The notes below the pieces were generated by a model. It did no database searches. It saw nothing but the letters and a program-made list of their open reading frames with translations, and was not told the DNA's origin. From an uncultured Methanosarcinales archaeon (lineage in GTDB: Archaea; Nanobdellota; Nanobdellia; Woesearchaeales; JACJVW01), in assembly GCA_964473285.1 (NCBI GenBank), contig CAYYOI010000001.1:1689-65688 (forward strand): a DNA stretch of 64,000 bases. Direction: 5' to 3'. The position numbers and the translations under genes were made by a program. This document shows, piece by piece, positions 22 through 33,470 of the stretch (positions within the stretch are counted from its first letter, which is position 1; every line of letters starts with the position of its first letter).

Positions 22-1371
22 ATGGATTTTTCATTGCTACTGCTCATTGGCCGATATGCCCTTTTCATATTAATCATTCTTGGAGTTGTATTCTATAAGT
101 ACAGATGGTCACTCATAAGCAAGATCTCTTGTGTGATAGGATATGCGACTTTCCTTGGCATGATAATGACAATTATCAGTTTTAAGCTAGAAACATCAGT
201 AGTTGTTCGTATTATAATATTAGTACTTACTGGAATATTCGTCCTTCTTATGCCAATGATATTCCTTATAAAGCACATGATAATCAAGCCATTCTATGAC
301 ATGAAAAAGGAGATTGAAGTGCTTGCAAAAAAGGACCTTACCAAAAGCAAGGCAATATCACATACAGAAGATGAGTTCGGATCTATCGGAGCAAGCCTGG
401 AAGAACTAAAGAAAAATCTACGGGAAGTAATAAACAGCATAAAAAAGAATTCATCATCAAATGCAAATATCGCTGAAAACCTTTCATCCTCAAGCCAGGA
501 AGTGACAGCATCAACAGAAGAGGTCTCATCCACCCTCCATAATGTATCTGAGGAAACAAATAAACTTAAAGAGATAACTGAAAAGGATACAGAAGCACTT
601 TCTAAACTAACAAAAAAGGTGGAAGACAGCACAAACCAGCTTAATGAATCACGTGCCCGTCTTAATGACACCAAGGCAAAGACAGAAGAAGGTGCAAATT
701 ATGCAAACGAAGCAATCAAGAAGATTGGTGCAATAACAGATTCCTCCAATAAGACTGTTGATGTAATAAAAACACTGGAGGGAAAGTCAAGCACAATACC
801 AAAGATTGTTGATTCAATAAATGAAATATCCGAACAGACAAATCTTTTAGCACTTAATGCTGCAATCGAGGCTGCAAGAGCAGGAGAGGCAGGAAAGGGC
901 TTTGCAGTTGTTTCGGAAGAGATAAGAAAACTTGCTGAAGAAACCCAAAAATCCACAAAGCAGATATCTTCACTTATCGAAGAGATAGTTTCAAGCACTA
1001 AAGATGCAGTTCAGTCTGTCCAGAATACCAGTGAAGAAGTTGAATCAGGTTCAACTGTAATCAAAGGGGCTTTGCATTCGCTTGAAGAGATAAAAAACCT
1101 TGTGGATGAGGTCATGGGAACATTCAATAATCTTGAGGAAGAGATCCAGGAACAAGGACAACAGCAGAAGGAAGTCTTTGATAACCAAAAAAAGGTACAG
1201 GAATTTGTTACTTCTATCACACAGGCAATAAATGATATATCAACAGCTTCAGCTGAGACATCAACAGCAATGACTTCTGTTTCAGGTGAGGCACAAAAAC
1301 TTGCAGGGACAGCTGAGAACCTTTACGAATCAGTCACTCAATTCAAGACAAGCGTTGAAAAAAGGGATTAA
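22..1371 (+). CDS. Methyl-accepting chemotaxis protein: two N-terminal TM helices, a HAMP-like linker and an MCP signalling domain, with no large ligand-binding domain
   Basis: Highly conserved MCP signalling motif '[34 protein letters not shown]'. Heptad-rich coiled-coil. Hydrophobic N-terminus '[21 protein letters not shown]' plus a second TM. Confidence 0.9.
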
Positions 1372-1917
1372 ATGTTTGACCTTTCCAAGCAACAGGCATT
1401 ATCAAAACTTGACAAGAGCAAGAAAGGCTATATAGACGAGGAGATTCTTCCCCTGATAACTGCCTTGAACAAGAAAAAAAATTTCTATACCACTAGCAGT
1501 TGTGCAGGAAGGATAGTTCTTCTTGAGCTTCGTGGCAAAAAAAAGCATGATGCACACTGGATTTTCTGTTCCCATAAAAAGGCAGAGGGAATTGAATCTG
1601 AGATATCAGAATATCCTGTATGGTTCCGATACGATCCTCCAATAATACACCTGTCATGCAGGACACTCGAAGACGCGAAAATTTTCCTTGAAATAGCAAA
1701 AAATGCAGGTTTCAAGCACACAGGAATAATCTCCCTGGGAAGGATAATGGTTGAGCTTATAGGGTATGACAAGATTGCAACACTAGTCTCAAGGGATGGA
1801 AAGCCTCTTGTGGATAAGGAATATCTCAATATACTCACAGAGCTTGCAAACGAATGCATGGAAAGGAACAGGTTAAGGTTACAGGCACTCTACGAGAGTC
1901 TTGATAGACTTACCTAA
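1372..1917 (+). CDS. taw3: tRNA wybutosine/wyosine-derivative biosynthesis methyltransferase, TYW3/Taw3 family
   Basis: About 180 aa with the family-typical 'TTSSCAGRIVLLE' motif. The start abuts the MCP stop (1371/1372). Confidence 0.7.
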   Translation: MFDLSKQQALSKLDKSKKGYIDEEILPLITALNKKKNFYTTSSCAGRIVLLELRGKKKHDAHWIFCSHKKAEGIESEISEYPVWFRYDPPIIHLSCRTLEDAKIFLEIAKNAGFKHTGIISLGRIMVELIGYDKIATLVSRDGKPLVDKEYLNILTELANECMERNRLRLQALYESLDRLT

Positions 1918-1952
1918 AATCTTATAAATAGATACAGGTTGTATTTCTTCCA

Positions 1953-3866
1953 ATGATTCTAGGAAAGATAACCGGAAGAGTGACAACTTCTGAATTCAAT
2001 TTCCTTGTAGCGGAAAATCCTCAGAAATTTGATTATGTCCAGGTATATCATCGCGAATACGGGTATGTGCTATGCCAGATAATCGAGATTGAAAGGAAAG
2101 AGGGAGAGACTAAAGCAAAATGCACCATTCTTGGATATCTTGACCAGGGAAGGGTAAAGCCAATCAGGACCCCTTTTGAACCAGGATGCGAGGTACTTCC
2201 TGCGGAAGATAGCTTCATACAGGATGTTGTCAAGCTGGATAATGAGACAGGGGCATATCTTGGTTTTCTAGAAGGGAAAAAGATACCTATCCATATGGAC
2301 CTTAACAAACTGCTGACAAAACATGTAGCGATCCTTGCAAAGAGCGGTGCAGGAAAGTCTTACACTGTAGGCGTGTTATTGGAGGAGATTATGGAAAAGA
2401 ATGTCCCACTGCTCCTTATTGATCCCCATGGTGAGCATTCTGCAATGAAATACCCAAATGAAAAGGATGACCTGGAATCATTCGGGATAGTCAAGAAGGG
2501 ATTTCTTGACCAGATAGAGGAATATGGTGATACGAGCATAACACCAGACCTGCGACCACTCAAATTACAGGAGAAGATGAGCACACAGGAGTTATTGCAC
2601 CTGCTTCCGGCAAAACTAAGCGCAAACCAGCAGAATGTTTTGTATGCTGCCCTCAAGAATGTGGAGGAGCCAACTTTTGTCAGCATCCTGCAAGCGCTGG
2701 AGATGGAGGAGAATAATGCAAAATACAGTGTCATCAACATAATAGATTACCTTTACAATCTAGGCATCTTCTCACAGAGCAACACACCTTATGAAGAGCT
2801 TGTACGATCAGGTAGGTGCTCAATAATCAATCTCAAAGGAATAGAACCACAGATGCAGGAGATAATAGCCTCAAAATTGCTTTCTGATCTTTTTGAGTTG
2901 AGAAAAAAAGGGAAGATTCCTCCTTTCTTCACTTTCATTGAAGAGGCACATATATTTGCGCCTGAAAGGTCTTTTGGCGAGACAAAGGCATCCAGGATTC
3001 TCAGGACCATTGCTTCAGAAGGAAGGAAGTTCGGACTAGGCCTGGGTGTGGTCTCTCAGAGGCCTGCAAGGGTAGACAAATCCGTACTTTCACAATGCTC
3101 CACCCAACTTATCCTCAAAGTAACCAATCCAAACGATCTGCGGGCAATTTCAGCTTCAGTTGAGGGGCTTACCCCTGAAAGTGAAAAGGAGATAATCAAT
3201 CTTCCAATAGGGACGGCACTGGTCACAGGAGTTGTTGATGTGCCTCTTTTTGTTAGTGTCAGGCCAAGGAAAAGCAGGCATGGTGGAGAGGCTGTTGATA
3301 TGCTGGGAAATAATTTCCTTGATGAGATGGAAGATTTTGAGAATAAGGAACTGCTTCCTATAATCACTCCAAAGATATCAGGAAAGGAACTGGAGATAAT
3401 CCACGAGAATCCCATAGAAAAGACAAGACTGATACCTGCAGCCCATATAGTATGTAAGGGAGAGAGTGAATTCAAGCTTTTAGTTGACCTGCATAACGGA
3501 GGGATTGTACATGAGGATGCAATCTATTACCTGCCTGATGTTGACTCACTCACAAGGGAAGAACTGGGTTTCCTGAAGAGGGTATTCAGGGAAAAGCGCC
3601 TGCAATCAGAACTTGCCCCAAAAAGCCTCCTTGAGAGGGGATATGTAATCAAAGAGAGAGGTGATTACTTACTCAACCCAAGCTATGTATTCTCGAGACT
3701 TGAAGGAAAAAGAGATTTTCAGGCAGTCGAGTTCCAGGCAATCAAATATGATGAGATTGCAGAAGAGTCTTTTGATATAGGGGAGATGAAAGAAAAGATA
3801 GGCAGGTTCGTGTCAGTTCTAGATGAGCAGAGGTGTTATTATGTTGAATATCATCTTCCAAAATAA
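1953..3866 (+). CDS. HerA/FtsK-superfamily (DUF87-like) ATPase with a ~200-aa C-terminal extension
   Basis: Walker A 'AKSGAGKSYTVGV'. Walker B 'FTFIEEAHIFAP'. 'GLGLGVVSQRPARVDKSVLSQCSTQLILKVTNPND' resembles the HerA/FtsK Q-R motif region. The N-terminal beta-rich region is compatible with a HAS-barrel. Confidence 0.75.
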   Translation: MILGKITGRVTTSEFNFLVAENPQKFDYVQVYHREYGYVLCQIIEIERKEGETKAKCTILGYLDQGRVKPIRTPFEPGCEVLPAEDSFIQDVVKLDNETGAYLGFLEGKKIPIHMDLNKLLTKHVAILAKSGAGKSYTVGVLLEEIMEKNVPLLLIDPHGEHSAMKYPNEKDDLESFGIVKKGFLDQIEEYGDTSITPDLRPLKLQEKMSTQELLHLLPAKLSANQQNVLYAALKNVEEPTFVSILQALEMEENNAKYSVINIIDYLYNLGIFSQSNTPYEELVRSGRCSIINLKGIEPQMQEIIASKLLSDLFELRKKGKIPPFFTFIEEAHIFAPERSFGETKASRILRTIASEGRKFGLGLGVVSQRPARVDKSVLSQCSTQLILKVTNPNDLRAISASVEGLTPESEKEIINLPIGTALVTGVVDVPLFVSVRPRKSRHGGEAVDMLGNNFLDEMEDFENKELLPIITPKISGKELEIIHENPIEKTRLIPAAHIVCKGESEFKLLVDLHNGGIVHEDAIYYLPDVDSLTREELGFLKRVFREKRLQSELAPKSLLERGYVIKERGDYLLNPSYVFSRLEGKRDFQAVEFQAIKYDEIAEESFDIGEMKEKIGRFVSVLDEQRCYYVEYHLPK

Positions 3867-3895
3867 TTATATAGCATCACTAATTCTGTAAAAAT

Positions 3896-4849
3896 ATGAA
3901 CCTTCTTATTGTTGATGATGATAAGAAAACTCTGAATACTCTGGAGGAGGCATTATCAGATTATCCTCTGAGATTTGCCAGGACTTCAAAACAGGCATCA
4001 ACAATCCTGCAAAAAGGAATCATAGATGTTGCTCTTCTTAGCGTATCTATGAAGGATTATCTGGACCTTTTCACTAATACTATCATAAATGGATCATATC
4101 CTTTCGTAATGGTAAGAGAGACAGACGCAAAGGCAACTGTAGAGGCTTTCAGAAATGGTGCAAGTGATGTCATAACAAAACCAATAGATTTTGATTACCT
4201 GAAACAAAGGATTGAAGGTATCGCCTCAAATACAGAGAGCCATGTACTAAGGAATTATGAGAGGATGATGATGTATGAGATGCCTTATGTAATGGGTCAT
4301 CAGAATGAGGCAAGAAACCATGTGAGATGGCTTTGGCATGATGTGGGAAAAGAGTTGTATGATGAATTTTTCGATTCTTATGATGAGGATTTCGAGCGTC
4401 TTAGCCTGCTTGAGGCATGCTCGCTTCATGATATCGGGAAACTATCAATACCTCAGCATATAAGGGACAAAAAAGGCAAACTGACACAAACAGAGAAAGA
4501 TAAGGTACGGGCGCATCCTGTAATTGGATCAAAGATGCTACAGGGAATAAGAGGTTATGAAAGAGCAGCACAAATAATCAGGGAACATCATGAATATTAT
4601 GATGGGAGTGGGTATCCTGAAGGAAAGAAAGGAAAAGATATTGACCCTGGAGCAAGAATACTTTGTCCTGTAGAGACTTTGCTCGGATACATGCATTATA
4701 AGCCGTATCGTGGCAAAGGAATGCCTTTTGAAGAGGCCTGCAATATGTTCTTTCTAGAGCACAGGAAGTATGATCCAAGGGTTGTGGAGGTTTATCACCA
4801 CTACATAGAGAATAACTTTTTAAATAGGAGTGTACTTGCAATAGCATAA
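3896..4849 (+). CDS. Degenerate CheY-like receiver (phospho-acceptor Asp replaced by Ser) fused to an HD-GYP phosphohydrolase domain
   Basis: N-terminus 'LLIVDDDKK...IDVALLSVSM' with Ser where the receiver Asp is expected. 'CSLHDIGKL' is the HD motif. 'HHEYYDGSGYPEG' is the GYP motif. Confidence 0.75.
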   Translation: MNLLIVDDDKKTLNTLEEALSDYPLRFARTSKQASTILQKGIIDVALLSVSMKDYLDLFTNTIINGSYPFVMVRETDAKATVEAFRNGASDVITKPIDFDYLKQRIEGIASNTESHVLRNYERMMMYEMPYVMGHQNEARNHVRWLWHDVGKELYDEFFDSYDEDFERLSLLEACSLHDIGKLSIPQHIRDKKGKLTQTEKDKVRAHPVIGSKMLQGIRGYERAAQIIREHHEYYDGSGYPEGKKGKDIDPGARILCPVETLLGYMHYKPYRGKGMPFEEACNMFFLEHRKYDPRVVEVYHHYIENNFLNRSVLAIA

Positions 4850-4850
4850 A

Positions 4851-7523
4851 ATGAAAATTGTTGGTGCAAATGAGAATGCCCGTCAGCCTCTGGATGACGT
4901 GATTGCTCTGCAGGATCATCTTCTTTCACTTAATGACCTTCCTATTGAACTTCTTGAAAGATACTGTGAAGAGGGGCAGTTTGTTGTTGGATATAATGCA
5001 ATCAAGCAATTCAGGAATGAGCTTGAAAAGAAAGTAGGCTCTGAGATAGAAGGGATGCTTGAATCATACCTGAACCATGCTTTTCCAGGAAAAAAGCTTT
5101 GCCTTGAGCCACAATATGTAGAAAAGGATAATATAACTTTCATGAGATATGAGTTGGGGGATAAAACACCTATAAAAGAGGTGAATATCCGTATAAAAAA
5201 GCGCCTGTTCGAATCACTTCTGAGGAATAATCTGAGGAATGAATCAGTGCTTGACCTGATCGGCATGGAATTCAATATTCATGACCCTTCTTTTGAAGGG
5301 AGCCCTTCAAAAAAACAAAGAGATAAGGAAAAAGGCATGACATATGAGATTGCATCTGACTTCCTTAAATCTTTGACAGGCATGGGAGAAATAAGGCCTT
5401 TTAGCTATATCCAGCATTACAAGACAACTAGTTTCTTCAATGAGCAGTTCAACACTAACTTGGAAGCTTGTGGGCTACACCAGAAGATTGTACATAAGAA
5501 CATAAATTACTACCTGAATATCCTGCATTTCCAGGATGAACAGTTCCAGAAAGTGATCAGTGACTTTTTCCAGGAGTTCCCGAAAGAGAAGAGGGATGTT
5601 GAGGGATTTGATTGTGCTTGGACACATCTGGACGGCGCTTCAAGAGAATGTTTCATAGGCATGAAAGATAATCTCCTGGTTGATATAGAGACAAAACCAA
5701 TCTATCAGAGCTGGCCTTACATGGATGCAATTATAGATAATGTTCTTCCTGTAATAGTGGAGAATCATGAAAGAACCTCTGCTGCACTTGATGAGATTAT
5801 TAATGGAATGTTGCCTAATGGATGGAAGCTGGGAAAGATGATTCCTGTTAGTGGAGAATTCAATGAACACCTTCTTTCAGTCCCAAAAGACAATGAGGTG
5901 AATATATATCATTACAGGGAAGAGGGTGAAAAGCACGTCTCATACAGGATAAGACAGGAAAAACCCAGACGTTTCAAGATGAAGCATACTGATCATGCTT
6001 ACAGGCTTGATGACTTTTATCTTATAAAGAAAGATAATCTTGTCCTGGAGATTCCAGCAGATACAGATAAGGATGCAAGGAGGATTGCAAAGAAACTTGA
6101 TCAATATTCACCAAATATCAACTCTGTCAGGCAGCTAAGGATAAAGAAAGGAACTATACCTCTTGATTTCAGGATACACAATGTGCGCCAGAACAACCGT
6201 TTCCTGAGCAGATATATGATATTTGAGCCTTTTGAAGAACTAAACAACGAGTTCACGATAATAGACAGATATGCAAACCCTAAACAAAAAAAGAATCCAA
6301 AGACGAATAAGACAGATACTTACAAGGATTACCAAGCTCTCGTGGTCACTTCAAAGGGAAGGGTGATAGAATGCCAGTTCAAGGACAGGTGGACTCATAA
6401 GGATAATGAGAAAGGCTGCCTGAACCATAAGGCATATGTAAAGAAACAGCAGAAGGATCTTGAGAACTATCCTGAGATAATGATGTTTTGCAAGGCACTT
6501 CAGACAGGCAAACCTGACCCTGAACTGCTGGGGCTATTCAGAGCATCAAGGTTCAGGAAAAGGTTTGATAACTATATGAACATGATTCAGGCTTGCTCAA
6601 TCGGCGAGATGGTAAATGAGACAGAGAGAATGATTGCCCTTTACAAAGAGATCAAACCTATGGAGGGGCAAGAGGAATCCATTAAAGAGCTTGAGACAAT
6701 GCTTATAGAAACACCTCTCAATTTTATCGCCTCACAGATTGAAAGACCAGATTACATCCCAAGAACCCTTGTTCTGAATCAGGTATTAAAGACCCATGGT
6801 ATAGCTGAATGGGAAGAAGATTTTTTGGTGGATTATGCTTTGAGTGAAGAGATAGAGAGCCTGAAAGGAAGGATCGGGAAGGCATCCTTTACAACTATAC
6901 ATGATGAGATAATAGAAAGGCTTCCTTCTTTTGCAATGAACATGAAAACTTATGTAAAAAATGATTATGATGCACATAGTGAATTATCTTACCTGGCAAT
7001 CAGCTATACAATGTCATCGGTGATGAGAATAAGAGAGACACCTATAACAAAGGTTTTACCATTGATCCTTGATCCTGATTCTACCATGAAGCAAGCCATG
7101 GGTATGATACAGGAAGTAAGCCAAAGTTTCGGAATTGATTATGATATGGAAAATAGCTTACATGAGATAGCTTATGCTGCACAACAACAGATTGCCTCAA
7201 GAGCAAAAGAGGCTTTCCAAGCATGCGCTACATGCAGCAGGACTGAAGGCATATACAGGAGCATGGTAGGGTTTACACTTTATTCTGACCTGAAAAAGAT
7301 TGAGGAAATGCTTCCTTTGAAGTTCTCAGAAGAAATACACAATACAAGTTTCTATTTTGACAGGAACCACCTAGTATATCTTCCAAAAGGGATGCTTTAC
7401 AATGATATACCAAGAGGCAAGAAAACGAACATGAATCTGCTCAAGAAAGTTTCAAAGGAATTCACAGGCGACCCTGATTATGCAGATCATGTGAAAGAAG
7501 TCATGAATAGCCTGAAATACTGA
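4851..7523 (+). CDS. Large hypothetical protein, 890 aa, no recognisable family. Possible PD-(D/E)xK-like 'HLDG...LLVDIETK' segment.
   Basis: Long uninterrupted ORF. It starts 2 nt after the HD-GYP stop, so it is probably co-transcribed. No motifs I can assign confidently. Confidence 0.55.
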   Translation: MKIVGANENARQPLDDVIALQDHLLSLNDLPIELLERYCEEGQFVVGYNAIKQFRNELEKKVGSEIEGMLESYLNHAFPGKKLCLEPQYVEKDNITFMRYELGDKTPIKEVNIRIKKRLFESLLRNNLRNESVLDLIGMEFNIHDPSFEGSPSKKQRDKEKGMTYEIASDFLKSLTGMGEIRPFSYIQHYKTTSFFNEQFNTNLEACGLHQKIVHKNINYYLNILHFQDEQFQKVISDFFQEFPKEKRDVEGFDCAWTHLDGASRECFIGMKDNLLVDIETKPIYQSWPYMDAIIDNVLPVIVENHERTSAALDEIINGMLPNGWKLGKMIPVSGEFNEHLLSVPKDNEVNIYHYREEGEKHVSYRIRQEKPRRFKMKHTDHAYRLDDFYLIKKDNLVLEIPADTDKDARRIAKKLDQYSPNINSVRQLRIKKGTIPLDFRIHNVRQNNRFLSRYMIFEPFEELNNEFTIIDRYANPKQKKNPKTNKTDTYKDYQALVVTSKGRVIECQFKDRWTHKDNEKGCLNHKAYVKKQQKDLENYPEIMMFCKALQTGKPDPELLGLFRASRFRKRFDNYMNMIQACSIGEMVNETERMIALYKEIKPMEGQEESIKELETMLIETPLNFIASQIERPDYIPRTLVLNQVLKTHGIAEWEEDFLVDYALSEEIESLKGRIGKASFTTIHDEIIERLPSFAMNMKTYVKNDYDAHSELSYLAISYTMSSVMRIRETPITKVLPLILDPDSTMKQAMGMIQEVSQSFGIDYDMENSLHEIAYAAQQQIASRAKEAFQACATCSRTEGIYRSMVGFTLYSDLKKIEEMLPLKFSEEIHNTSFYFDRNHLVYLPKGMLYNDIPRGKKTNMNLLKKVSKEFTGDPDYADHVKEVMNSLKY

Positions 7524-8519
7524 TTATTCCCAGTCCTTTCTAAGTTCTCTGTTGTGTTCTTTTATGTTGTCTCCAAGGACTGCATGCCCGCTCATATCAG
7601 GGGAATACCTGCTTGCAGGAACAATCCTTCCCAGTCGCTCGGCCATGGTACGGATGAAATGAGGAGATCCACCGCAGCAGAGACCTATATAGTTGATGCC
7701 AATATCCTTTGCTTCCTTGGCAAAGTCCGCGCATTCCCTGCGATTGAGGAGAAAGTGTTCAAGGTTAACAGGCCAGTCACTTGTCTCATCTTTTAATTTC
7801 TGGAAATTCTTATGCTGTTCATCAGTAGAATATGGGACCGGCAATGCGGCAACATGACCTGATACAGTGTTGCGGATATCTTTTAGCAAGGGCATCATTG
7901 TTGCCGGGCCCCTACCACAATTAAGCCCTACCACGTCTGCTCCTTTCTCTTCAAGAATCCTGCAGGCTTCAGCCCAGGTATGATTGTCTGCTGTCTTTTC
8001 ATGGAAAGGTGCAAGAGTAACAACCGCCAAAAGACCATGGGATCTGATCACTTCAAGGGCGATGAGTGCTTCTCCCAGATAGAAGAAGGTCTCAGCTATC
8101 ACGAAATCAACACCTTCCTCTTTTGCCCATCTTACCTGTTCATCAAAGATTGCGCGTACGCTCTCATGGGTAGATTGGTCGTTTGGATCATAGACCCAGG
8201 TATTGCAGATGTTTCCGGCGCATAGCTTGTCACCTGCAGCAGCCCGTGCAATCCGGAGTGCCTGCCTGTTCAAGCTTTCAAGCTCATCCTCACGACCAAT
8301 GCCTTTGAGCTTGTCACGATGACCATAATATGTGAATGCGACAGATACATCTGAACCGCATGCCATGAATTCTTCATGGAGTTGTTGAAGCGCTTTTGGA
8401 TTGTCAAGGACAACTTCTGGGACAAAAGGGCCTGCCTTGAGGTGGCCTCGTCTTTCAAGTTCAAAGAGATATCCTTCAGCACAGATTATCCCTTTTTCTA
8501 TTTGTTGTTTGAAATCCAT
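7524..8519 (-). CDS. Homocysteine S-methyltransferase family protein, PF02574-like
   Basis: 'VVGLNCGRGP' and C-terminal 'GLCCGGSPHF' Cys cluster typical of the Hcy-binding zinc site. About 330 aa. Confidence 0.65.
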   Translation of the reverse strand: MDFKQQIEKGIICAEGYLFELERRGHLKAGPFVPEVVLDNPKALQQLHEEFMACGSDVSVAFTYYGHRDKLKGIGREDELESLNRQALRIARAAAGDKLCAGNICNTWVYDPNDQSTHESVRAIFDEQVRWAKEEGVDFVIAETFFYLGEALIALEVIRSHGLLAVVTLAPFHEKTADNHTWAEACRILEEKGADVVGLNCGRGPATMMPLLKDIRNTVSGHVAALPVPYSTDEQHKNFQKLKDETSDWPVNLEHFLLNRRECADFAKEAKDIGINYIGLCCGGSPHFIRTMAERLGRIVPASRYSPDMSGHAVLGDNIKEHNRELRKDWE

Positions 8520-9592
8520 CAGAAATCATTCAGATTCTTGTTCTTCTTGCGATGCACGTAAGTTGTGTTGCCGGCGGTTCCTCCACCTGTTTTTGTGGTC
8601 TCTATGAATCTTGCTTTCTCCAGTTTCTCGATCTTACGCTGGAAGGTCTTTGAGGTCTTATCACCACCCTGTTCCTTATAGATCCGGTAAAGATCACCTA
8701 TCCTCTTTCCGGTGTTCTCCTTTATTATGTTAAGTATAAGCTGGGAGTCCTCCTCAAGATCAGTTGATTTTTTTATGGAGAATTCCTCAAGTTTCTTTAT
8801 TGCCTGGGTGGCATGCTCTGAAGTAATCCTGCGGGAAGAGACTTCCTCTGCACAACGACCTGACTCACGGAGAAGATATATTCCCTGGCGGACATCACCA
8901 AGCTCAAAAGCTTTTTCCACTATCAGATCAAATGCCTCATCTTCCCATACGTCCTGGTAGAATGCATACTTGACCCTTTCCTTGAGAATGTCGGTTATCT
9001 CACGGGCACTGTATTTCTCGAACTCAAGGGTATCGGGAGTAAGGCGTGACTTGACCCTGCCGTCAAGATGGATTATCCATTCCTTGTAGTTGGTTATCAA
9101 AAGAAGGGATTTCTTGAATATCTCTTCACTGATCATATAGAGGAAATCATCGTCTTCAAGCTTATCCACCTCGTCAAAGGCAAAAACTGCACTCTTCTTG
9201 TTGTTTATTATACCTTTTGCTACCCTAAAGAGCTCATCTGTCTTCTTGTTCTGGGTAAAACGATAACCCAACTGATCGCATATCTCAACTATGACCTTAT
9301 AGCTTGTATTTTTCTGCCAGCAATTGATATAGATGGGAAAAACGTCCTCTGTCTCATCTTCGAGATCACGAAGGACCCACCTTGTTGCAGCAGTCTTTCC
9401 TATTCCAGGGTCTCCGTATATGAAAAGGTTTTTTCCGTTACGTGACTGGATAAGCGGAGCTATGCATGCAGCAATGTATTTTTGCTTCTCTTCCCTATGG
9501 GGGAGAAGTTTAGGAACAAAATCATAATCAAGAGCAAGCTCATTACTAAATAGGGTCTCATCATCCTTTAACATATCCTTAAAAAGACTCAT
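8519..9592 (-). CDS. Orc1/Cdc6 replication initiator paralog
   Basis: AAA+ Walker A 'YGDPGIGKTAATRWV', Walker B 'FAFDEVDKL', and a C-terminal winged-helix region. 357 aa. Confidence 0.85.
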   Translation of the reverse strand: MSLFKDMLKDDETLFSNELALDYDFVPKLLPHREEKQKYIAACIAPLIQSRNGKNLFIYGDPGIGKTAATRWVLRDLEDETEDVFPIYINCWQKNTSYKVIVEICDQLGYRFTQNKKTDELFRVAKGIINNKKSAVFAFDEVDKLEDDDFLYMISEEIFKKSLLLITNYKEWIIHLDGRVKSRLTPDTLEFEKYSAREITDILKERVKYAFYQDVWEDEAFDLIVEKAFELGDVRQGIYLLRESGRCAEEVSSRRITSEHATQAIKKLEEFSIKKSTDLEEDSQLILNIIKENTGKRIGDLYRIYKEQGGDKTSKTFQRKIEKLEKARFIETTKTGGGTAGNTTYVHRKKNKNLNDF

Positions 9593-9624: not shown

Positions 9625-11130
9625 TTATGGTGGGTTTTTTCTCATATTTTCAGGTCTATAGAACTGATCAGGATTCTGCCGGGATTGCTGATATGGGGAA
9701 GATTGACCAGGGTTTTGAAATGGCTGGCTTTGTGTGGACTGTGCCTGCCGGAATTCCTGACCTGTTTTTGGATTTTGTGGACGCTGGTAGAACTGGGCTG
9801 GAGGTGCCTGTCCTTGCTGGAATTGCTGGTTTTGGGCAGGTTGATTCTGCTGAGGCTGCATTTGTGGGGGGGGGTTTTGCTGCTGGGATTGTTTTCTTCT
9901 TGTGAAGATAAACATCCAGGCTACATTTATCGCTATGAGAACAACTATAAGGATTATAAGGACTGTGTTTCCGTCTGTTTCTTCACTGTCTGCAATCACT
10001 TTTGCAGTAGGAGAAAAGTCTGTGACAATCTCGTTTAATGTTACTGTCGCATTGAAAAGCTTCTCAGTGACCTTTTCTTCATAATTTACCTGTAGTTTTA
10101 TGTCATATTCACCGGGAGAGATATCTTTAGTGTCCCAATAGGCATTAACCTTCTCTACTGAGCCTGGCGCGATGGAAACAGATGATGTCTTGAAATCAGC
10201 ATATTCTTTCCCTTGCTTGTCAAGGACAAACAGATGAGCATAAACATCATTTATAGGCCTGTTCCAGCGATTCATGAGGTCTATCTGGAATTTGGCGATA
10301 TCACCGTGCTTGAAGTCGGGAACATCAACATCAACAACCTCCACCCGCATGCTTCCAACATAGAAATTCTTCTTTACAGTAAAGGATTTGTCATCATAGG
10401 TAACTGTTGCGATGGCATGGTAGAGTCCAGGGCTGACATCTGCCTTCCATCTTGATAGAAGCTTTACTTCATCCTGTACTGAAAGGCTTTCGGATTGGGT
10501 AAGAACTGTTGCGAGCACCTCATTCGTTGGGCCCCGGACCTCAATTGAAGCCTGGATATCCTGGATCTTCTCGCTACCGAAGTTATAGACTGGTAACTTG
10601 AAACCTGCATAGCCCCCAACATCAGCATCCTCAATAAAAAGCTTGCCTTCTGCATACTTATCAGGGTAGGGCACAAACACTGAAAGTTTTGATACAACTG
10701 CAGTTGTTGCCTGAACAACTGTTCCTTTCTCTTCAGACTCAAAGACAACCTGCGAGTCATCTATTACCACCGCTGAGCCTGCATCATCAGGGATATGCAT
10801 GGCAACAAGGTCAATCTCATGAACCCCTGGCTGGTCTATCTTTTCAGGCAGGGTAAGATTGAAATTGATTGTCTTCTCTTTCTCTCCCTGGGAGAAGCTT
10901 ACTATCGATTTTTTGAAACGAATTGTCTCTGCCAGATCTCCCTTGGGATATACGATGGCTTTCATGGGCTTTCCTTCAGGATTTAGGACCCTGATCTTCA
11001 AAGAATCTTCAAGTGAGGGCTGGAATTCCACGCTCTGTTTTGCAGGAGCTATACCAATACCGTAGGCAGAGCCAGCAAAAAGCAATACAAGGAAAACTAA
11101 CATTACTTTCTTATTCACCGGGCTCACCAT
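9625..11130 (-). CDS. Type-I membrane surface protein with Ig-like/CARDB-like beta domains, one TM and a Pro/Gln-rich low-complexity cytoplasmic tail
   Basis: Signal peptide 'MVSPVNKKVMLVFLVLLFAGSAYG'. TM 'VLIILIVVLIAINVAWMFIF'. Tail 'QQQNPPPQMQPQQNQPAQNQQFQQGQAPPAQ...'. Overlaps the giant-gene stop by 20 nt. Confidence 0.7.
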   Translation of the reverse strand: MVSPVNKKVMLVFLVLLFAGSAYGIGIAPAKQSVEFQPSLEDSLKIRVLNPEGKPMKAIVYPKGDLAETIRFKKSIVSFSQGEKEKTINFNLTLPEKIDQPGVHEIDLVAMHIPDDAGSAVVIDDSQVVFESEEKGTVVQATTAVVSKLSVFVPYPDKYAEGKLFIEDADVGGYAGFKLPVYNFGSEKIQDIQASIEVRGPTNEVLATVLTQSESLSVQDEVKLLSRWKADVSPGLYHAIATVTYDDKSFTVKKNFYVGSMRVEVVDVDVPDFKHGDIAKFQIDLMNRWNRPINDVYAHLFVLDKQGKEYADFKTSSVSIAPGSVEKVNAYWDTKDISPGEYDIKLQVNYEEKVTEKLFNATVTLNEIVTDFSPTAKVIADSEETDGNTVLIILIVVLIAINVAWMFIFTRRKQSQQQNPPPQMQPQQNQPAQNQQFQQGQAPPAQFYQRPQNPKTGQEFRQAQSTQSQPFQNPGQSSPYQQSRQNPDQFYRPENMRKNPP

Positions 11131-14100
11131 AAAATATCAATGTTGACTGTTTCTTACCTGGAGGTTCTTCCCAGGGTACTTCGATTTTTACTTCAATCTC
11201 GGCTTCATCTGAATCATCATGATGGAGGAGTTGTCTTATCATGTATGCATTGGAGGAGACATTTGTCCACTCGGTTACTGACTGGTTGTAATCGAATGAT
11301 GCATATTCTGTTGAATTGCCTGCCTTTATCTGGAAAAAACGGGAGGGACTCCTTGCCATAGGGCTTTCCCAGAGGTCATCCTGAGCAGAAATATTATGGA
11401 TATCAATTATTATGTTTCCATCGTTTCTCACTATGAATGGTTGGGGGGTGGAGCTGTTGGAATCATCTGTCGTTTCTATGCTGTCACCTACACGCTGGAC
11501 ACCGAATGATACATTTTCATTAGCTAGGGAAACTATGATCCTAGACTCTATCGAGAAGTTCCATGGCTCTGACCAGTTACTGTGAACAATGCCATCATAG
11601 GCCTGGATCCTCCAGGAATATATGGAATCATAATCGAGATCCTGAAAAGGGGTGAAGTTGAGATTTGTTATGTTTGTCTTGTTTATCTCATGGACAGAAC
11701 ACTGCAATGGTCCACTGCATTCCTCTAACTCAATGAGGAGGTTATATGATAAATTATCTGCATTGGAATCATATGCTTCTTCCCATGAGAATATTGGCCG
11801 ACGCTCAAATACTGTGAAATTATCTTCCTGGGGGGTCAGCCTTACCGGGATCTCAGGAGGTATATTTTCCTGAAGCCCGACTGTGAAAGTGTTCGTTTGT
11901 GAAGTGTTTTGAATCTCTTCATGCCAGCAGGTAACACTCCAGTTGTGTATCCCCTGGGAAAGATTATTTACAACTGTGTGAGTAACATCCCCACTACTTG
12001 TTATTACAGTAGTGTTTATTTCACCATCCAAAGATAAGTTACAAGTAACCTGTTCTCCCAAAACATCTGTTTTAGGTGTCCAGTTAAAATCAATGTTTTG
12101 GCTTTCAATCCTTTGCCCATCACGCGGATGGTGGAGTTCTATAGGAAGATAATTCACTATCTCAATGGTATCAGAGGCCTGGGATTTCATCGGGCGATAA
12201 AAATCAGTACTCTGGATGTTGCATTGGTAATCGTATGAGCCAAGGCTTGAACTGGAAAGGTCTATCTCATAAGAGGCATAGCCATCTGAACCAGAATAGG
12301 ATGAGCCTAGGTATCCTTCAGGCCCGTAATACTGTACAAGATAAGATGAGATAGGATCTGCAGTATCAGCATCAGTAACACTACATGTGAGGTTTGTCAC
12401 GCCTCTTGGTGTTATACCTGAAGGACTGACCCAATCAACCCTACTATTTCCTGTAAGGTTAAAATAGAGATATGGCACGGTATTGTTTATGTTCTTATTG
12501 GAATCATTTGCCCAAAGCTTTATTGCATGCTTTCCTATGGTCCAGGAATTGTTGGTGCATAAAGTAAGGTTCGTCCAGTTAACAGAATATGGCTTAGGGA
12601 TATCTTGTTCAATAAAATCAGAACTATTGTAGATTGCTCTTGCAGTATCAGGTTCTTCGTCCCACTTTCCGTAAAGGTATAAACATTCTCCCCTTGAAAG
12701 CTCAGTGTCATTGATCCCATATTCCTCAAGCTTGGGAGGATATATGTTTGATGTATTGACTACGTTCAATGAGATATTTGCGGAATCTATTGTTGCATTG
12801 TAGTAGAGCTGGTTTGTGATGTTACAAGTCATGGTGTGGAGTCCTAACTCACTGTCATTGAACTGGTATGTTGCCCATCCTGAAGCATTTGTAATATTAT
12901 TACCAAGATAGACCCCATTCCTGTAATAGGTCACATTGTATCCAGCAATCCCTGTATCATTGAGGTCCTGGACAAAGCATCCTGTTGTGGTGTAGTTTCC
13001 AATGCGAACGCTTGATCTTCTTTGGAATGAGTCTGTGATTCCAGAGTATCCCCACACTTCCATTTGTTGGATTGGTGTCTCATTGGAGTTAAGAGATGTA
13101 TCCCTGGCATATTGCTTCCATCCGTACAGCCCTGGATCTGTATCGGTTGGAACAGAATAATCAATATGTGCCCATGTATCATTTGAATCAAGGGAAATAT
13201 TTGTTACATTTGAAAATACTCCAGTTAGATTTAATGATAGAGTTGCATCTTCAAGTATTGCATTATCAGTCCATCTAACAGAGTAGGTTTCTCCCTGTCC
13301 TTTGTATGTCTTAACTGGCCCTGATATCTCCTTGTAACGTGGTGGATCAAATTCTCTTACGAATACAGTCTCATGAGATATATTCCGGTGATCAACCTTA
13401 TAGAGGGATGTTTCTGAGATATTACAGGTGAGATCATAGAGGCCATAGGTTGATGGCTCATAGATATAGGCAATCTCTCCTGCTTCATTGGTTGTTGACT
13501 GGTAGATGGGATAATCATCAGAATACAATGATACGGTATAACCTGGAATGGAGGACTGATTTGTCTCGTCAATTATTGAGCAAGTAATCCTGACTGAATC
13601 ATTTAGATCAATCTCTGTCTGGTTAATGCTCAAGTCATCCACCGTAGCAAGTCCATAGACGTTGAATGATAGATAAGGGAGAGTATCATTCCAAAAGCCG
13701 CTCGGATTATTTGCTTCAATACGCGTGACATGCTTACCAAGCAACCAGTTTGCTGAAGGGTTGAATGTATAATTGGTCCAGTTGTGCGGATTGGATTCAG
13801 AAAGTGTTATTTCATCTGATACCATACCTGGAATGGTTGCATTATAAAATACGTTTGCCTCGCCTATCTCCTGGTCCCAACGTGCAAATATGGTTGTATC
13901 CTGTGAATTCCTTATGACGTCATTTGTTGATAGTCCATAGATTGCTTCATGAAGATGAGGGAAATCATATTGCCTGTTGATAACATGGAAAAGAGATTCA
14001 TCAGATTTGGTGAATAGGCTATCATCTACTGTAAATACAACTGGGTAGTCTCCAGTGGAGGTCATGTTTACTGCATATGAAAGTGTCAATTTTGTATCAA

Positions 14101-17100
14101 CAGGTACTGTTCCTCTTGCATTCCACATGACTGTTCCATTGAAGGTTCCATTGTATTCATTCCCACCATATCCTATCTTATACCAGATGTCCTGGCTTTC
14201 GTTCAAATGCCAGGTTTGGTTGAGCCCGGCATGTGAGAAATCACTCTCAGATATGTTCCAATCCTGTGAATCGAAATGATTCTTCATCTCAATCTCTATC
14301 CGATATGATTCATTTCCAAAAAGTGTGAATGTCTTTGCTAGTCCTGAGTCAATAAGAGTTCCGCTTGAATATCGTGTTGTCTCATTCACTTCATAGATAC
14401 GTATATCCTCTATTGTCACGTATGTTTGCGGACCAAGAATTGTGAACTCATCATATCCTTCGTATACTCCTTCACTTGCTTGGATGGGTTCACCATAAGG
14501 AGTCTGCATATAAGCATATACCCTATAGGTGCCACCTTCAGAATTTTTGGTATCCCAAGGATTCCAAATCTTTTCAAGATCAAAGATGGTATCAGCGTTA
14601 ACTGTTTTTTCAATCCCGTTTATATGGGTATCAATTGTCTGCCATGTGTCATCATATCGCTGGATCTCTGCAAATACCTCACCCCGGAATGTTTCTGTAG
14701 TGCTTAGGGTATCATCTGCAAATGTTTCCTCTTCACCCATCTCATAATCAATCTCTCCGGTAAGAACTATCTTTATATCATCATATGTGTAGATTGGTGC
14801 TCCGTCTGAAGATATGCGTATCTGATCAAGATCTGTAGGATTGTCAGTGAAATCAAGGTCTTGGACAGTTGTTGATTGCCTGTGGTAATCGTACTTGTCA
14901 GCCACATCAAGCCTGTAATCATAATCTCCGGAAACATCCTCTTCTATAATATTGCCTGAGGCAGTGCTTGGATAGCGGGTGATATAATAATCTACAACCA
15001 TCCCTCCCCATGAACTCTCCCTATGAGTATAGATTGCTGGACCTAATCCTGCCACATCATCTGCATCTGTCATTTCTGATGCGTCACCAACACCAATGTG
15101 CTGCCACCAACCATCCCCACTATCAGGAGAGACCATATTGAATGATAAATTGAAAGCTTCCTGTAGCACCGAGAGATTGTGCTTGACACCAGCTGTACCT
15201 TGTACTTGCAGATGATTATTCACAATCTGTGTGTCTGTATCTGTGCCCCATTCTGACCAATTATTTCCAATATCATTCGAATCAGCACGATTGAAATCAT
15301 CGTAGAAATAATAGACTTCTGATTTATCAGAAGGGGCAATACCTGCATCAGGATTATGATAGTAAACGTAATATGAACCATTTCCTCGTGTCTTGAAAAG
15401 TATCCTTGTATTTGAAGAATCAAATGATGAGAGGTTAATCCTTGCAAGCTCAACATTCCCTGTCCCATTGAACCATACAATCCTAAGGTCATTGCCTGAG
15501 GGAAGCATTGAACGGGTATCCATACTTATCTCCATAGTATGACCATCTATGGTATCGTTCAGGATTATTTCCTTTCTTCTCTCGTATGAACCATCCCACC
15601 AGGGCACTGTCTCTATCAAGGTAACGTTCTCATGAAGATCATATGTGGATTCATTCACCTTTACCTGTATACCTCCATCCGCCTTCACTACAAAAGATGA
15701 AAGTGAAGAATGATTAATACTTCCAGAGGTATCTTTTGCAAACACCTGGACATGATAGGTTCCATTAAACCATGTGTCAGAGAACTGTCCTGTAAACAAC
15801 TCACCTGAAGAAAGAGATATATTTGTAGTAGAAGTGTTAGGGTATGTTACCTGGGCCCATGCAGAATCAATGGATGTATCATCTGTTATATTTGCTTGTA
15901 TTGTCTGATTGATGCCATATCCTATCACAGGGTCTATCATAACCTCATGGATGGTTGGCTTAAGTCCCAGATACATCTGTTCATAGCCAACAGAGGGGTT
16001 AGTGTAGTCATCAGGTGAACCCTCATAGGTCGCATTCAATGTGTGTAATCCTAATGAAAGTTCAGGCGTGAAGCTTTTGGTTGCCCACCCCTGCTCATTT
16101 GTGATAGCTGATCCTATTGCCTGATCATCTGTCTCGTCAAAGAAATATATCCTTTCCCCTGAAATTGCGGTGCCATTATCATAAACTAACCTTGCCTGCA
16201 GCTCTATCTCTTCTCCTCTTGATGTATCATTGTCAGAGACAATAAAAGATGAGATCGCTGTTTTTGCGTAAATGTCAATATAGGTATTCTTGAAATCTGA
16301 CTTGACTCCTGATCCAGCTGATTCAGCAGTCACATGTTGCGTACCCAGAGAGGTGGATATGGGAACGTCAAATGTCGCATTATTCCAGAGTACTTCACCA
16401 GCATACAGTAAAGATACATATGAGGAATCTGGTGTTACAAGTCCCCATGAAAGAGGATATGTTGTTATATTGAGATAGGCATCCACAACATCAGAATTGT
16501 TGGAACTCTGTGCAAGATAGCTTATGTCTGCCTGATTTCCACGGGTAATGCTTGATGGCGCGCTGTATTGGGTGATCTCAAATGTTCCCTGTTCACGTAT
16601 CTCTAATTTCTGGTTGAGGATCTCATCCCATACCTTTATCTCTTCACCAGGGTTAATGTACTTGATGGTCACATTCATATCATAGTCTCCAACAGAAGCT
16701 GTTCCTGTACTTATATTATATACTGCAGTAAGGGGACCTGCCAATGTGGCCATATTGCAGTCACTTACACAGGCACAGGATATGTTCTCCGGGCAGTTTA
16801 ATGAGATAGATACATCTGTTAGGTTCCTGCTCCATTCATTTTGCATTGAGAAATTAACGAGTTGTGAGGTGTTGAGATATTGCCGGCTTATATTTGAAAC
16901 AGCAAAATCTTCCCTCAGATTATGAATCAGGATATATTCGCTCCTATTGACACGCAATGGACCATTCAGTAAATCCATCACCACATCCCACTTTAACATG
17001 TAGCTTCCTTCGGCATCCTCAGGGATTGTATAGCCTTCATTCCATTGACGGGTCTTTGTGGTGTTGTATGGGATCTCTCCATAGTGCTTTGTTTCCTGAT

Positions 17101-27808: not shown

Positions 27809-28334
27809 ATAACCACCTTACTGCAATACCAAAAGCGATACCAACAAGATTTGCAATCATATCCTCCATAGAATCCTGCCAGGGGCCAAATGCCTGGCTA
27901 TTGTCACCTTCACCAAACATAAGCCAACCGCTTCCATAACCAAGAATCCTGAAGCCAAGATATTCACAGATCTCTATCCCTGCTCCTATACCCATCAATG
28001 AAAGCAATATGATACCATGCCTTGGATAGAAATAAGTAACTCCAAGAGTAAGAAAAAAGAATCCCATGAAATGTGCAAAGACATCATAATGCTCTAATCC
28101 ATAAAGGGTTCCATTGAATGGCAAAGTTCCTATGCTATTGAATAAAATGCTTATGCCAAAAAAACAGACTATGATATTGGGAATATACCAGTTTTTCCTG
28201 CGAATTATAAGAAAAGAAATCAATAAGGCAATGCCAATAAACATGTGTGCAGGATCAATGCCAGTAAAAAGATAGAACAAAGAAAGACTTAGATAGAACA
28301 AGACCCATAATCCAAAGACATCCCTCCAGTCCAT
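27789..28334 (-). CDS. Hypothetical polytopic membrane protein
   Basis: Hydrophobic throughout with about 5 TM segments. No family recognised. Confidence 0.45.
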   Translation of the reverse strand: MDWRDVFGLWVLFYLSLSLFYLFTGIDPAHMFIGIALLISFLIIRRKNWYIPNIIVCFFGISILFNSIGTLPFNGTLYGLEHYDVFAHFMGFFFLTLGVTYFYPRHGIILLSLMGIGAGIEICEYLGFRILGYGSGWLMFGEGDNSQAFGPWQDSMEDMIANLVGIAFGIAVRWLYEKRSA

Positions 28335-29997: not shown

Positions 29998-30177
29998 CTT
30001 AAACTACCTCAAAGGTCAAGCCATGAACACTGGTGAGCACTATACTGCCTAACAAACCAACTGTGCGCAACCAGTAGGGATACTTATGACAGGCTTGCCA
30101 GAATCCATTCCTAACCAAGATTGGCTGTTAGCTATATCTAATAAAATGAATATAAAATATAAATATTTTGTATACAC

Positions 30178-30525
30178 TCAAAAACTCAGGAATTTTTCAG
30201 CATACTCTCCTATGATAGGTATTGGCTTATTCTCTCCCTGGATTGCCTTGATAAGGCCAATCATCCACAGGACAAAAATACCCAGTTGTAGCAAAGAGCC
30301 TGCAAACATGATGATCCATCCTATAAAAGGTGCTGATGCGAGTATGCCAATAGCAATAGATATAACCAAGCTTACCAACAGGAGAAATAGCGCCTGCTTG
30401 GCATGGAATTTTGCAGACTTATCTTTCTTCATCTCTTCATCAACAAAGTACCAGATTATGCCTACCAAAAAATATGATAAGATTGCACATAATTTGCTTT
30501 TTTCCTTCTTTTTCATTTGTTCCAC
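30178..30525 (-). CDS. Small DUF4870-like membrane protein
   Basis: 115 aa with 'ILSYFLVGIIWY', 'HAKQALFL' and two or three TM helices. Confidence 0.5.
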   Translation of the reverse strand: MEQMKKKEKSKLCAILSYFLVGIIWYFVDEEMKKDKSAKFHAKQALFLLLVSLVISIAIGILASAPFIGWIIMFAGSLLQLGIFVLWMIGLIKAIQGENKPIPIIGEYAEKFLSF

Positions 30526-30850
30526 CCCAATAAGTGTAATAAGATATCACAAGTTTAAAAAGTTTGCTGCCTATTTGATTCATATAGATAGATTTATATA
30601 TTCGTCTTAGTCAAAAAAGATTATGAGTAATGAATTGTTCTTGGCAATACTTTACCTTGAGATGGTAGTAAGCTCATTTTTCCTTTTGTACTTCTGCATA
30701 AGGATAATAAAGATAACAAAAGGATCCAACAAGGGATAGCTTTTTTATGGACTTTTTAGTGTCCTGAATGGTATTGTCTCAATTGCAGGGATATTTCCGA
30801 GAGTTGCAACAGATCCTACTGTTGTTAATGTAGCTTATGGAATACAAAGC

Positions 30851-31557: not shown

Positions 31558-31582
31558 GATTTTCTTGATTAATTCTAAATAG

Positions 31583-33137: not shown

Positions 33138-33141
33138 GAAA

Positions 33142-33459: not shown

Positions 33460-33470
33460 AACTCGTACTT

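Follow-up and report, generated by a model that had tools for sequence, protein, structure and literature searches.

A candidate nucleotide-signalling gene pair beside a HerA-like ATPase gene in a Woesearchaeota genome

Proteins that combine a receiver (REC) domain with an HD-GYP domain constitute the RpfG family by definition, and both active and inactive forms of them exist (Galperin & Chou, bioRxiv 10.1101/2021.11.05.467447). The initial annotation of the DNA described here regarded c-di-GMP signalling through GGDEF, EAL, and HD-GYP proteins as all but absent from Archaea, in agreement with the only 70 archaeal HD-GYP open reading frames (ORFs) counted in GenBank, which are unverified and many of which are suspected contamination (Galperin & Chou, same reference). 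Signalling by cyclic di-GMP (c-di-GMP) and (p)ppGpp is viewed as bacterial, and neither messenger has been detected in archaea, where RelA/SpoT homologue (RSH) enzymes are rare (PMC10249747). The other described systems closest to this locus are the canonical archaeal HerA (Sulfolobus HerA, 4d2i), the anti-phage HerA proteins (SIR2-HerA and DUF4297-HerA; 8j4u, 8xau, and 9c1m), and the RSH synthetases, including the small alarmone synthetases (SAS) and toxSAS. Here we analysed a five-gene cluster in a 64-kb stretch of DNA (the window) from a Candidatus Woesearchaeota (DPANN) metagenome-assembled genome (MAG). The cluster encodes a methyl-accepting chemotaxis protein (MCP), a Taw3-family protein, a HerA-like ATPase, a pseudo-receiver::HD-GYP protein, and an orphan protein of 890 amino acids (aa), and had been annotated as a single transcription unit and a candidate HerA-centred system. 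On balance, our analysis favours three separately promoted units over one HerA-centred system, with a signalling module probably lying beside a housekeeping translocase. The MCP and Taw3 genes would be lineage-specific neighbours. The HerA-like gene would be the local, stand-alone orthologue of an ATPase conserved in Woesearchaeota and Nanoarchaeota, acting as a hexameric nucleic-acid translocase. The HD-GYP and 890-aa genes would form a fast-evolving, patchy accessory module between HerA and the S-methyltransferase/Orc1 genes.

Organization of the five-gene locus

The ORF listing gives five co-directional ORFs at 22-1371, 1372-1917, 1953-3866, 3896-4849, and 4851-7523 of the + strand, encoding 449, 181, 637, 317, and 890 aa in order and separated by 0, 35, 29, and 1 nt, exactly as first annotated. 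Family scans were made with Pfam, NCBIfam, and PADLOC, and also against PDB sequences; the Pfam matches agree with all the domain calls of the initial annotation (MCP, Taw3, HerA-like, and REC::HD-GYP). Two further MAGs carry all five genes in an unchanged order, at the loci L001/L007 (HerA 95% identical) and L002/L008 (HerA 84%), which indicates that the ORFs are real genes and not chance ORFs. The genes and the promoter-like elements are as follows.

22..1371, + strand: methyl-accepting chemotaxis protein (Pfam MCPsignal 8.5e-45, HAMP 2.9e-4)
1372..1917, + strand: TYW3/Taw3-family tRNA wyosine methyltransferase (Pfam TYW3, PF02676, 6.9e-47)
1916..1930, + strand: BRE/TATA-like element AAAATCTTATAAATA, its TATA beginning 31 nt before the HerA ATG
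1953..3866, + strand: HerA-like ATPase of the FtsK/HerA superfamily, 637 aa (DUF87 5.8e-31, HerA_C 9.7e-7, HAS-barrel 5e-3)
3867..3874, + strand: TATA-like box TTATATAG, 29 nt before the HD-GYP ATG
3896..4849, + strand: pseudo-receiver::HD-GYP phosphodiesterase of RpfG-type architecture, 317 aa (HD_5 1.1e-23, HD 2.8e-11, Response_reg 5.9e-9)
4816..4827, + strand: TATA-like box TTTTTAAATAGG, within the HD-GYP ORF near its 3' end, ~33 nt before the orphan ATG
4851..7523, + strand: 890-aa orphan of a five-member family (phmmer and locus context)

Analysis of the intergenic gaps speaks against the single transcription unit, since a TATA-like box occurs in both the 35-nt and the 29-nt gap, ~30 nt upstream of the ATG. 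Ahead of HerA the gap sequence is AAAATCTTATAAATAGATACAGGTTGTATTTCTTCCA-ATG, in which TTATAAAT begins 31 nt before the start codon. A aaaaCCTTATAAATA-type element, combining a B recognition element (BRE) with a TATA box, lies at the same distance before HerA in L001, L002, L172, L174, L176, and L171, and a weaker version is found in L003, L005, and L090. This element is kept among orthologues whose upstream genes are unrelated, and it may be the own promoter of HerA, giving a leaderless or short-leader mRNA. A TATA-like box likewise precedes the HD-GYP ATG by ~25-33 nt in L001, L002, and L172, and its counterpart at 3867..3874 is the putative HD-GYP promoter. Upstream of the orphan ATG, strict TATA motif matches occur at -33/-32 in the window, and the boxes TTTATAAAT and CTATAAAT are found ~30 nt upstream in L001, L002, and L172, being kept although the gaps between the HD-GYP and orphan genes differ (1, 15, and 64 nt); the extra box within the HD-GYP gene could act as an internal promoter of the orphan gene. 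Among 47 window genes, 14 of 30 strict TATA-like matches fall within the 12-nt span from -36 to -25 relative to the ATG, a clustering that bears the signature of leaderless or short-leader archaeal transcripts. Because conserved TATA-like boxes fill them, the gaps of 29-35 nt are better read as putative core promoters than as operon evidence. A scan for sigma-70 promoters and intrinsic terminators found nothing above shuffles, using a bacterial model that is wrong for an archaeon.

The HerA-like protein shares the HAS-barrel, the FtsK/HerA ATPase core, and intact Walker motifs with canonical archaeal HerA, and matches HerA 4d2i (2e-32, query aa 53-452) and 9x1l (4e-37) among the PDB sequences. 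An alignment of 20 sequences revealed that the HAS-barrel and ATPase core (aa 1-445) are highly conserved, with a near-invariant Walker A (AKSGAGKSY), Walker B (FIEEAH), and SQRPA motif. The protein differs from canonical HerA in an additional C-terminal region of ~190 aa of no known family (aa 446-637), which is family-specific and more variable, yet still alignable. This region has no significant match in a profile search of the PDB or in Pfam scans of 20 members, and faint MarR/RuvB_C winged-helix hints at L..EL..LK....L..KGYL suggest that it probably contains a winged helix. The protein also scores far below the cut-offs of the NCBIfam HerA equivalogs NF040819 and NF040937 (163 bits vs 970 and 128 bits vs 800, respectively) and of the HerA_antiphage models (91 bits vs 800 and 75 bits vs 850). 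With the anti-phage HerA proteins it shares the ATPase fold (PDB E values of 7e-19 to 2e-14), and the PADLOC HerA models reach 2.7e-40 on it, a generic similarity. Unlike those proteins, it has no Sir2, DUF4297, or other effector encoded beside it according to Pfam and PADLOC, and its family has housekeeping neighbours and is near-universal in a phylum-level group rather than sporadic. A literature search on HerA in DPANN found no relevant report.

The homologue search with the HerA-like protein returned 3,843 matches, the best 120 of which are 640-700 aa long, show 48-63% identity over 99-100% of the length, and come almost all from Woesearchaeota, Nanoarchaeota, and DPANN MAGs. Distant homologues retain 40-44% identity over aa 1-457 and have different or missing C-termini; their neighbours, named by eye without a family scan, include diphthine synthase, a transglutaminase-like protein, and the ribosomal proteins S12/S7. 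Inspection of ~28 orthologous HerA loci indicated that neither NurA, Mre11, and Rad50 nor a defence effector adjoins the gene there or in the window, and none of these three proteins is encoded among the scanned ORFs of at least 180 aa in the window. Nor does any of them adjoin the distant homologues or the shorter paralogue described below in the loci read. Gene sizes of a herA-mre11-rad50 operon were seen only in two Ignisphaera loci (L057/L058), where genes were assigned by length alone. Downstream of HerA, an Asn-synthase-like gene is found in L009, L010, and L093 (AspRS also nearby), a 507-aa unknown in L005, an LpxC gene on the opposite strand in L011, an acetyltransferase in L170, a methyltransferase in L171, a photolyase in L173, a homocysteine S-methyltransferase in L174, and a 267-aa unknown in L176. 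Since the orthologues occupy shifting, mostly housekeeping contexts, the gene behaves as a conserved housekeeping gene, and the protein most likely has a housekeeping DNA function, such as end processing, segregation, or repair, with no adjoining NurA. The initial annotation had considered that the gene might be the canonical housekeeping HerA and its linkage to the partner genes not conserved: it is not a canonical HerA with NurA, whereas the linkage is indeed limited to one subclade.

Several observations concern the HerA loci themselves. A reverse transcriptase gene (RVT_1, 2.6e-22) lies at 5813-6988 of L011, immediately upstream of the HerA orthologue, and a Pol-beta nucleotidyltransferase gene with a 118-aa gene lies upstream of HerA at 448-1405 of L174 and also in L175, perhaps an MNT/HEPN-like pair; small accessory elements thus seem to insert around the HerA gene in several lineages. 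The locus L109 encodes a 1,144-aa version of the main family. Woesearchaeota also possess a second, shorter HerA-like paralogue of ~440 aa (usually 436-445), which is 25-27% identical and apparently lacks the HAS-barrel. Many genomes (for example L038, L040, L053, L055, L059, L063-L065, and L070) carry 800-1,300-aa versions of it, whose length suggests inteins or fusions. Its neighbours, judged by eye without a family scan, likewise look like housekeeping genes (DsbA-like, Trm5-like, HtpX, and FtsJ). A contig scan with the single HerA protein retrieved mostly this paralogue, which is distinct from the orthologue; its loci, within L012-L074, served as a control.

Analysis of gene neighbourhoods indicated that a pseudo-REC::HD-GYP gene lies 3' of HerA only in the window, L001, L002, L003/L004, and L172. 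It is followed by the orphan gene in the window, L001, L002, and L172 and stands without it in L003/L004, where the 369-aa protein of L003 is a diverged REC::HD-GYP. On the 7.2-kb contig L172, a HerA gene whose product is 57% identical to that of the window is followed by the HD-GYP gene and an orphan ORF of >847 aa that ends at the contig edge. The adjacency of the three genes noted in the initial annotation thus recurs in a distant relative. The HerA->HD-GYP->orphan order is kept in four lineages, while most HerA orthologues lack these partners. In a neighbour-joining tree of HerA, every locus with the module falls into a single subclade, which also includes the module-free L170, L173, L174/175, and L176. 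Comparison of the window with L172 yields identities of 57% for HerA, 23% for HD-GYP, and 25% for the orphan, values by which the HD-GYP and orphan genes appear to evolve far faster than HerA. The gene directly after HerA in L174 encodes an S-methyltransferase, and the same kind of gene lies just beyond the orphan in the window; the module would therefore be an insertion between HerA and S-methyltransferase/Orc1, or an ancestral segment of that position that was repeatedly lost.

Four points weigh against this reading of separate units. The module lies directly 3' of HerA in all five lineages with known context. The outer flanks differ among the module loci, with TYW3 or a minus-strand 315-aa gene upstream and an S-methyltransferase or EamA gene downstream, and the persistence of the adjacency despite these differing flanks would point to a functional or regulatory tie between HerA and the module. 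The predicted promoters are motif matches, and read-through across gaps of 29-35 nt is possible. The view of the genome spans 64 kb, to which the scans for NurA, GGDEF, CD-NTase, and cyclase genes were confined. The first two points suit the view that the HerA-like ATPase, the pseudo-REC::HD-GYP protein, and the orphan are the motor, regulator, and effector of one three-component system, possibly serving defence or signalling. Their order is kept where the orphan is only 25% identical, the HerA->HD-GYP order extends to L003/L004, and the adjacency survives rearrangements; the patchy distribution and fast evolution of the partners would fit an accessory or defence role, and defence-type HerA models give their usual generic similarity. 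We nevertheless regard such a system as unlikely. The HerA-like family is ubiquitous in Woesearchaeota/Nanoarchaeota, and most genomes carry an equally conserved HerA with the same promoter element and without the partners, each of the three genes has a TATA-like box of its own, and an orphan homologue (P0125, at L075 on a 4-kb contig) has no HerA or HD-GYP gene in the 1.3 kb upstream. All NCBIfam HerA models, the anti-phage ones included, stay far below their cut-offs. No recognisable effector (Sir2, DUF4297, or nuclease) and no defence-island context was found around the cluster by the Pfam, NCBIfam, and PADLOC scans. The surrounding genes are housekeeping genes (homocysteine S-methyltransferase, Orc1/Cdc6, SerRS, PCMT, an ABC transporter, and others, besides the tRNA-modification gene of the cluster), and the suggestion of a defence system thus finds no support here.

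The pseudo-receiver HD-GYP protein

The 317-aa protein consists of a REC-like domain (aa 1-108), whose Response_reg match of 36.5 bits exceeds the cut-off of 30.2, and an HD-GYP domain (aa ~127-308). The closest solved structures are those of V. cholerae V-cGAP3 (5z7c, 6.8e-20) and P. marina PmGH (4mcw, 5.7e-17), and the NCBIfam model of the NosR-family c-di-GMP phosphodiesterase matches at 1.3e-27, below its cut-off. With these members of the RpfG family the protein shares the domain order and the complete HD...H...HHE..DGxGYP signature, formed by H178-D179, H207, H231-H232-E233, D236, and G239-Y240-P241. The position of the last Asp ligand carries Glu, and the C-terminal ligand region reads VETLLGY where RpfG-type proteins have ADIFDAL. 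The first E-x-x-x-H motif reads E-A-R-N-H in the window protein, with some variation among relatives.

Alignment with E. coli CheY supported the annotation of the receiver as degenerate and revealed that the position of the phospho-acceptor D57 is Ser in all five homologues (Ser49 in the window protein). The conserved Thr (T87 in CheY) is replaced by Arg, another difference from RpfG receivers, and the Lys corresponding to K109 persists in the window protein (Lys95) and is missing from those of L002 and L003. Since Ser49 replaces the phospho-accepting Asp, the pseudo-receiver is predicted not to be phosphorylatable, and it may act as a phosphorylation-independent regulatory or protein-contact domain. 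The distant L172 protein (394 aa; HD_5 4.4e-10, faint REC) is 23% identical across both domains and retains both the Ser at the phospho-acceptor position and HH...GEGYP.

The host, a DPANN archaeon, also sets the protein apart from the RpfG family. Its gene lies on a 77-kb contig among archaeal housekeeping neighbours (TYW3 and Orc1/Cdc6), is accompanied by archaeal-type TATA boxes, and recurs in at least five related assemblies, which marks it as a genuine archaeal gene. No GGDEF, EAL, CD-NTase, or Che gene was found among the scanned ORFs of at least 180 aa in the window. The GC content at third codon positions (GC3) is 0.33 for the MCP gene and 0.35 for the HD-GYP gene versus 0.41-0.43 for TYW3, HerA, and the orphan, values that faintly suggest a different, possibly bacterial, origin for the former two.

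Possible RelA/SpoT-like motifs in the orphan protein

The orphan status of the 890-aa protein holds, as it has no match in Pfam, NCBIfam, PADLOC, or the PDB sequences, and its profile retrieved nothing from the PDB. A phmmer search of 1.84 billion cluster representatives gave four hits, namely P0002, the two halves of the L002 gene, and P0125 (27% identity). A search of 5.8 billion proteins returned the protein itself (P0001, identical, on a 77-kb contig) and one match; neither a profile search of the same 5.8 billion proteins nor a pattern scan of JGI metagenomes added further members. The L172 context supplied the fifth member (25% identity over 635 aa, E 6e-39), and the orphan belongs to a new protein family with five known members. 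Two other interpretations were discarded: the L002 gene is not a split pseudogene, the split being a run of N in the assembly, and the orphan is not a diverged NurA or the usual downstream partner, having no similarity to the 369-aa (L003) or 507-aa (L005) proteins. The protein is mixed alpha/beta over its first ~540 aa and helical over the remaining ~350 aa; in the AlphaFold2 (AF2) model, the predicted local distance difference test score (pLDDT) is only 35 from the single sequence and 50 from a five-row alignment. Fold searches with this low-confidence model (pLDDT ~50) gave no nucleotidyltransferase and no significant fold match. Two conserved blocks were located in the family alignment.

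5169..5273, + strand: orphan N-block PIKEVNIRIKKRLFESLLRNNLRNESVLDLIGMEF, aa 107-141, with invariant R114, K116, D135, and G138
6246..6449, + strand: orphan C-core, aa 466-533, IIDRYANPK...YKDYQALVV...VIECQFKDRWTHKDNE..LNHKAY

The N-block resembles the Syn1-Syn2 region of RelA/SpoT (RxK...DxxGxR) and is collinear with RelA positions 30-98. Its AF2 secondary structure is strand-helix-strand (pLDDT 65-75). Compared by hhalign with a 14-sequence RelA/SpoT/SAS alignment, which was built from E. coli and phage-collection records, it gave a weak P of 0.025, and 2 of 300 column shuffles reached its score. The C-core, for which the pLDDT stays below 46, conserves D472-R473-Y474, N476-P477-K478, a following Y-K-D-x-Q, E507-x-Q509-F-K-D-x-x-T-H516, an N-E pair, and H526-x-x-Y529 and resembles Syn3-Syn5 (DYIxxPK...YxSxH...ExQxRT...HxxYK). 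Its hhalign comparison with the same alignment gave P values of 1.3e-4 to 4.7e-4, against 0.03-0.12 for reversed controls, and a score of 29.3 that none of 300 column shuffles reached (mean 11.9, standard deviation 2.3, maximum 23.8). Among 24,736 Pfam families, RelA_SpoT (PF04607) ranked first for two orphan members that are 27% identical, namely for aa 440-560 of the window protein (E=0.006, 17.3 bits, below the cut-off of 27) and for an insert-deleted construct of P0125 (E=0.0044, 17.7 bits, again below 27), in which the match covers profile positions 15-112 of 113.

The orphan blocks are thus collinear with Syn1-Syn5 of the RSH synthetases (RxK, DxxG, D-[RY]-Y-x-x-PK, ExQ-[FI]-[KR]-[DT], and HxxY), and an HD-superfamily phosphohydrolase is encoded beside the orphan, a further likeness to RSH proteins. 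It differs from them in its length of 850-890 aa, in the ~330 aa between N-block and C-core, and in a partner hydrolase that is an HD-GYP rather than an RSH-type HD domain; it also has no significant sequence or structure match to them. Other results tell against the assignment as well: the RelA/SpoT similarity lies below every curated threshold (Pfam ~17 bits vs 27), a hidden Markov model (HMM) of our own 14 RelA/SAS sequences ranks the orphan third of 989 without significance (E=0.31), a BLASTP comparison with the E. coli RelA synthetase domain found nothing, and the orphan family keeps neither the Arg of DxxGxR nor the His of YxSxH. We therefore put forward the RelA/SpoT-like nature of the orphan as a tentative assignment that falls somewhat short of probable. 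If it is correct, a divergent core resembling RelA/SpoT nucleotidyltransferases, which large insertions either split or flank, would make a modified or phosphorylated nucleotide signal, and the HD-GYP enzyme would degrade this signal or a (cyclic) di- or oligonucleotide. An undescribed DPANN module, in which the orphan makes an alarmone-like or modified nucleotide that the HD-GYP protein degrades, possibly modulating the adjoining HerA-like translocase, appears rather unlikely at present.

The evidence on both proteins bears on two further explanations. In the first, the HD-GYP protein is a horizontally acquired bacterial phosphodiesterase for c-di-GMP or cGAMP, and the orphan is an unrelated structural or sensor protein whose RelA/SpoT likeness arose by chance. 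The best structural relatives of the HD-GYP protein, V-cGAP3 and PmGH, are indeed bacterial, its gene has the lower GC3 given above, and neither the fold searches nor the RelA HMM produced a significant result for the orphan. A chance likeness is hard to reconcile with the shuffled-column controls of the C-core and with the first rank of RelA_SpoT for two members so divergent. The two genes, moreover, keep their order and adjacency, separated by 1 to 64 nt, at identities of 23-25%. The window scans found no GGDEF or CD-NTase gene, and c-di-GMP has not been detected in archaea (PMC10249747), so that we consider this explanation quite unlikely.

In the second explanation, the pair is a toxSAS-type toxin-antitoxin or an abortive-infection-like system, the orphan being a growth-arresting pyrophosphokinase whose product the hydrolase neutralises. 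The hydrolase gene comes first and is followed at 1 nt, an order like that of antitoxin and toxin; the RelA/SpoT-like motifs, the patchy distribution, the repeated loss, and the very fast divergence would agree with such a system, and the toxins of some toxSAS systems are counteracted by small alarmone hydrolases that belong to the HD superfamily. Known toxSAS proteins are, however, much shorter than the 850-890-aa orphan, and the known antitoxin hydrolases are, to our knowledge, RSH-type HD domains and not HD-GYP proteins with a pseudo-receiver. The pair keeps a single chromosomal position, which fits vertical inheritance rather than mobility, and has no PADLOC match, and the explanation leans on the unproven RelA/SpoT assignment. 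We judge it very unlikely and retain the reading of a signalling module beside a housekeeping translocase.

Neighbouring genes and wider implications

The MCP has two N-terminal transmembrane helices (hydrophobic N-terminal segments are visible in the translation), a weak HAMP domain, and an MCP signalling domain. Its gene lies upstream in L001 and L002 only, being confined to the three closest MAGs and absent from L003, L170, and L172. The TYW3 match spans profile positions 3-210 of 211, while the NCBIfam Taw3 model (4.6e-38) gives 130.8 bits, below the equivalog cut-off of 200. The adjacency of TYW3 and HerA is also found in L003/L004 and in L170, the latter without the HD-GYP module; within this subclade, TYW3 accompanies HerA as a syntenic housekeeping gene. 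Neither gene thus belongs to the proposed system; the MCP and Taw3 genes are incidental, lineage-specific neighbours outside the conserved module.

The genes on the other side of the cluster and elsewhere in the window are as follows.

7524-9592, - strand: homocysteine S-methyltransferase and Orc1/Cdc6, overlapping by 1 nt at 8519
9625-11130, - strand: 501-aa protein with a WxLIP_HBD/CARDB-like domain, a transmembrane segment, and a Q/P-rich tail
11111-24172, - strand: giant 4,353-aa ORF rich in N-x-T/S sequons, its L002 orthologue carrying DUF2341
28334-29509, - strand: CBS-domain protein fused to a ribosome-hibernation (S30AE/HPF) domain
30000-50000: low-GC island, 28-36% vs ~41% elsewhere
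32067-33137, + strand: tyrosine integrase in the low-GC island
33471-37448, - strand, and 41183-44881, - strand: further ORFs of the low-GC island
38942-39634, - strand: serine recombinase (resolvase) in the low-GC island
50449-51549, + strand: DHH-family phosphoesterase

In L002, L003, and L170 as well, Orc1/Cdc6 is no more than a few kb away from the HerA-like gene, and the HerA/Orc1 locus may lie near a replication origin. The 4,353-aa and 501-aa proteins, conserved as a pair next to Orc1 in L002, are probably a surface or adhesion apparatus. The low-GC island also encodes a 1,325-aa PQQ beta-propeller protein and a 1,232-aa protein in which a DnaG primase of bacterial type (CHC2 zinc ribbon, DNAG_N, and Toprim) is joined to a full MCM helicase; the island probably represents an integrated mobile element that encodes a primase-helicase of its own. 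The DHH phosphoesterase could be a nanoRNase or a cyclic or linear dinucleotide phosphodiesterase, which would be relevant if the genome uses nucleotide messengers. No tRNA gene was found in the window.

The locus provides an RpfG-type HD-GYP protein with a pseudo-receiver in an archaeon, a HerA-family ATPase with a new C-terminal domain, and a possible, highly divergent RSH-like protein. The size of intergenic gaps in this genome should not count as operon evidence. The Woesearchaeota 'HerA' emerges as a stand-alone, NurA-less, near-universal family and is itself an uncharacterised, probably housekeeping, machine. If the orphan is a nucleotide synthetase, the module would offer a directly testable example of a new second messenger in genome-reduced, host-dependent archaea, and of nucleotide signalling of a kind thought to be essentially absent from Archaea.

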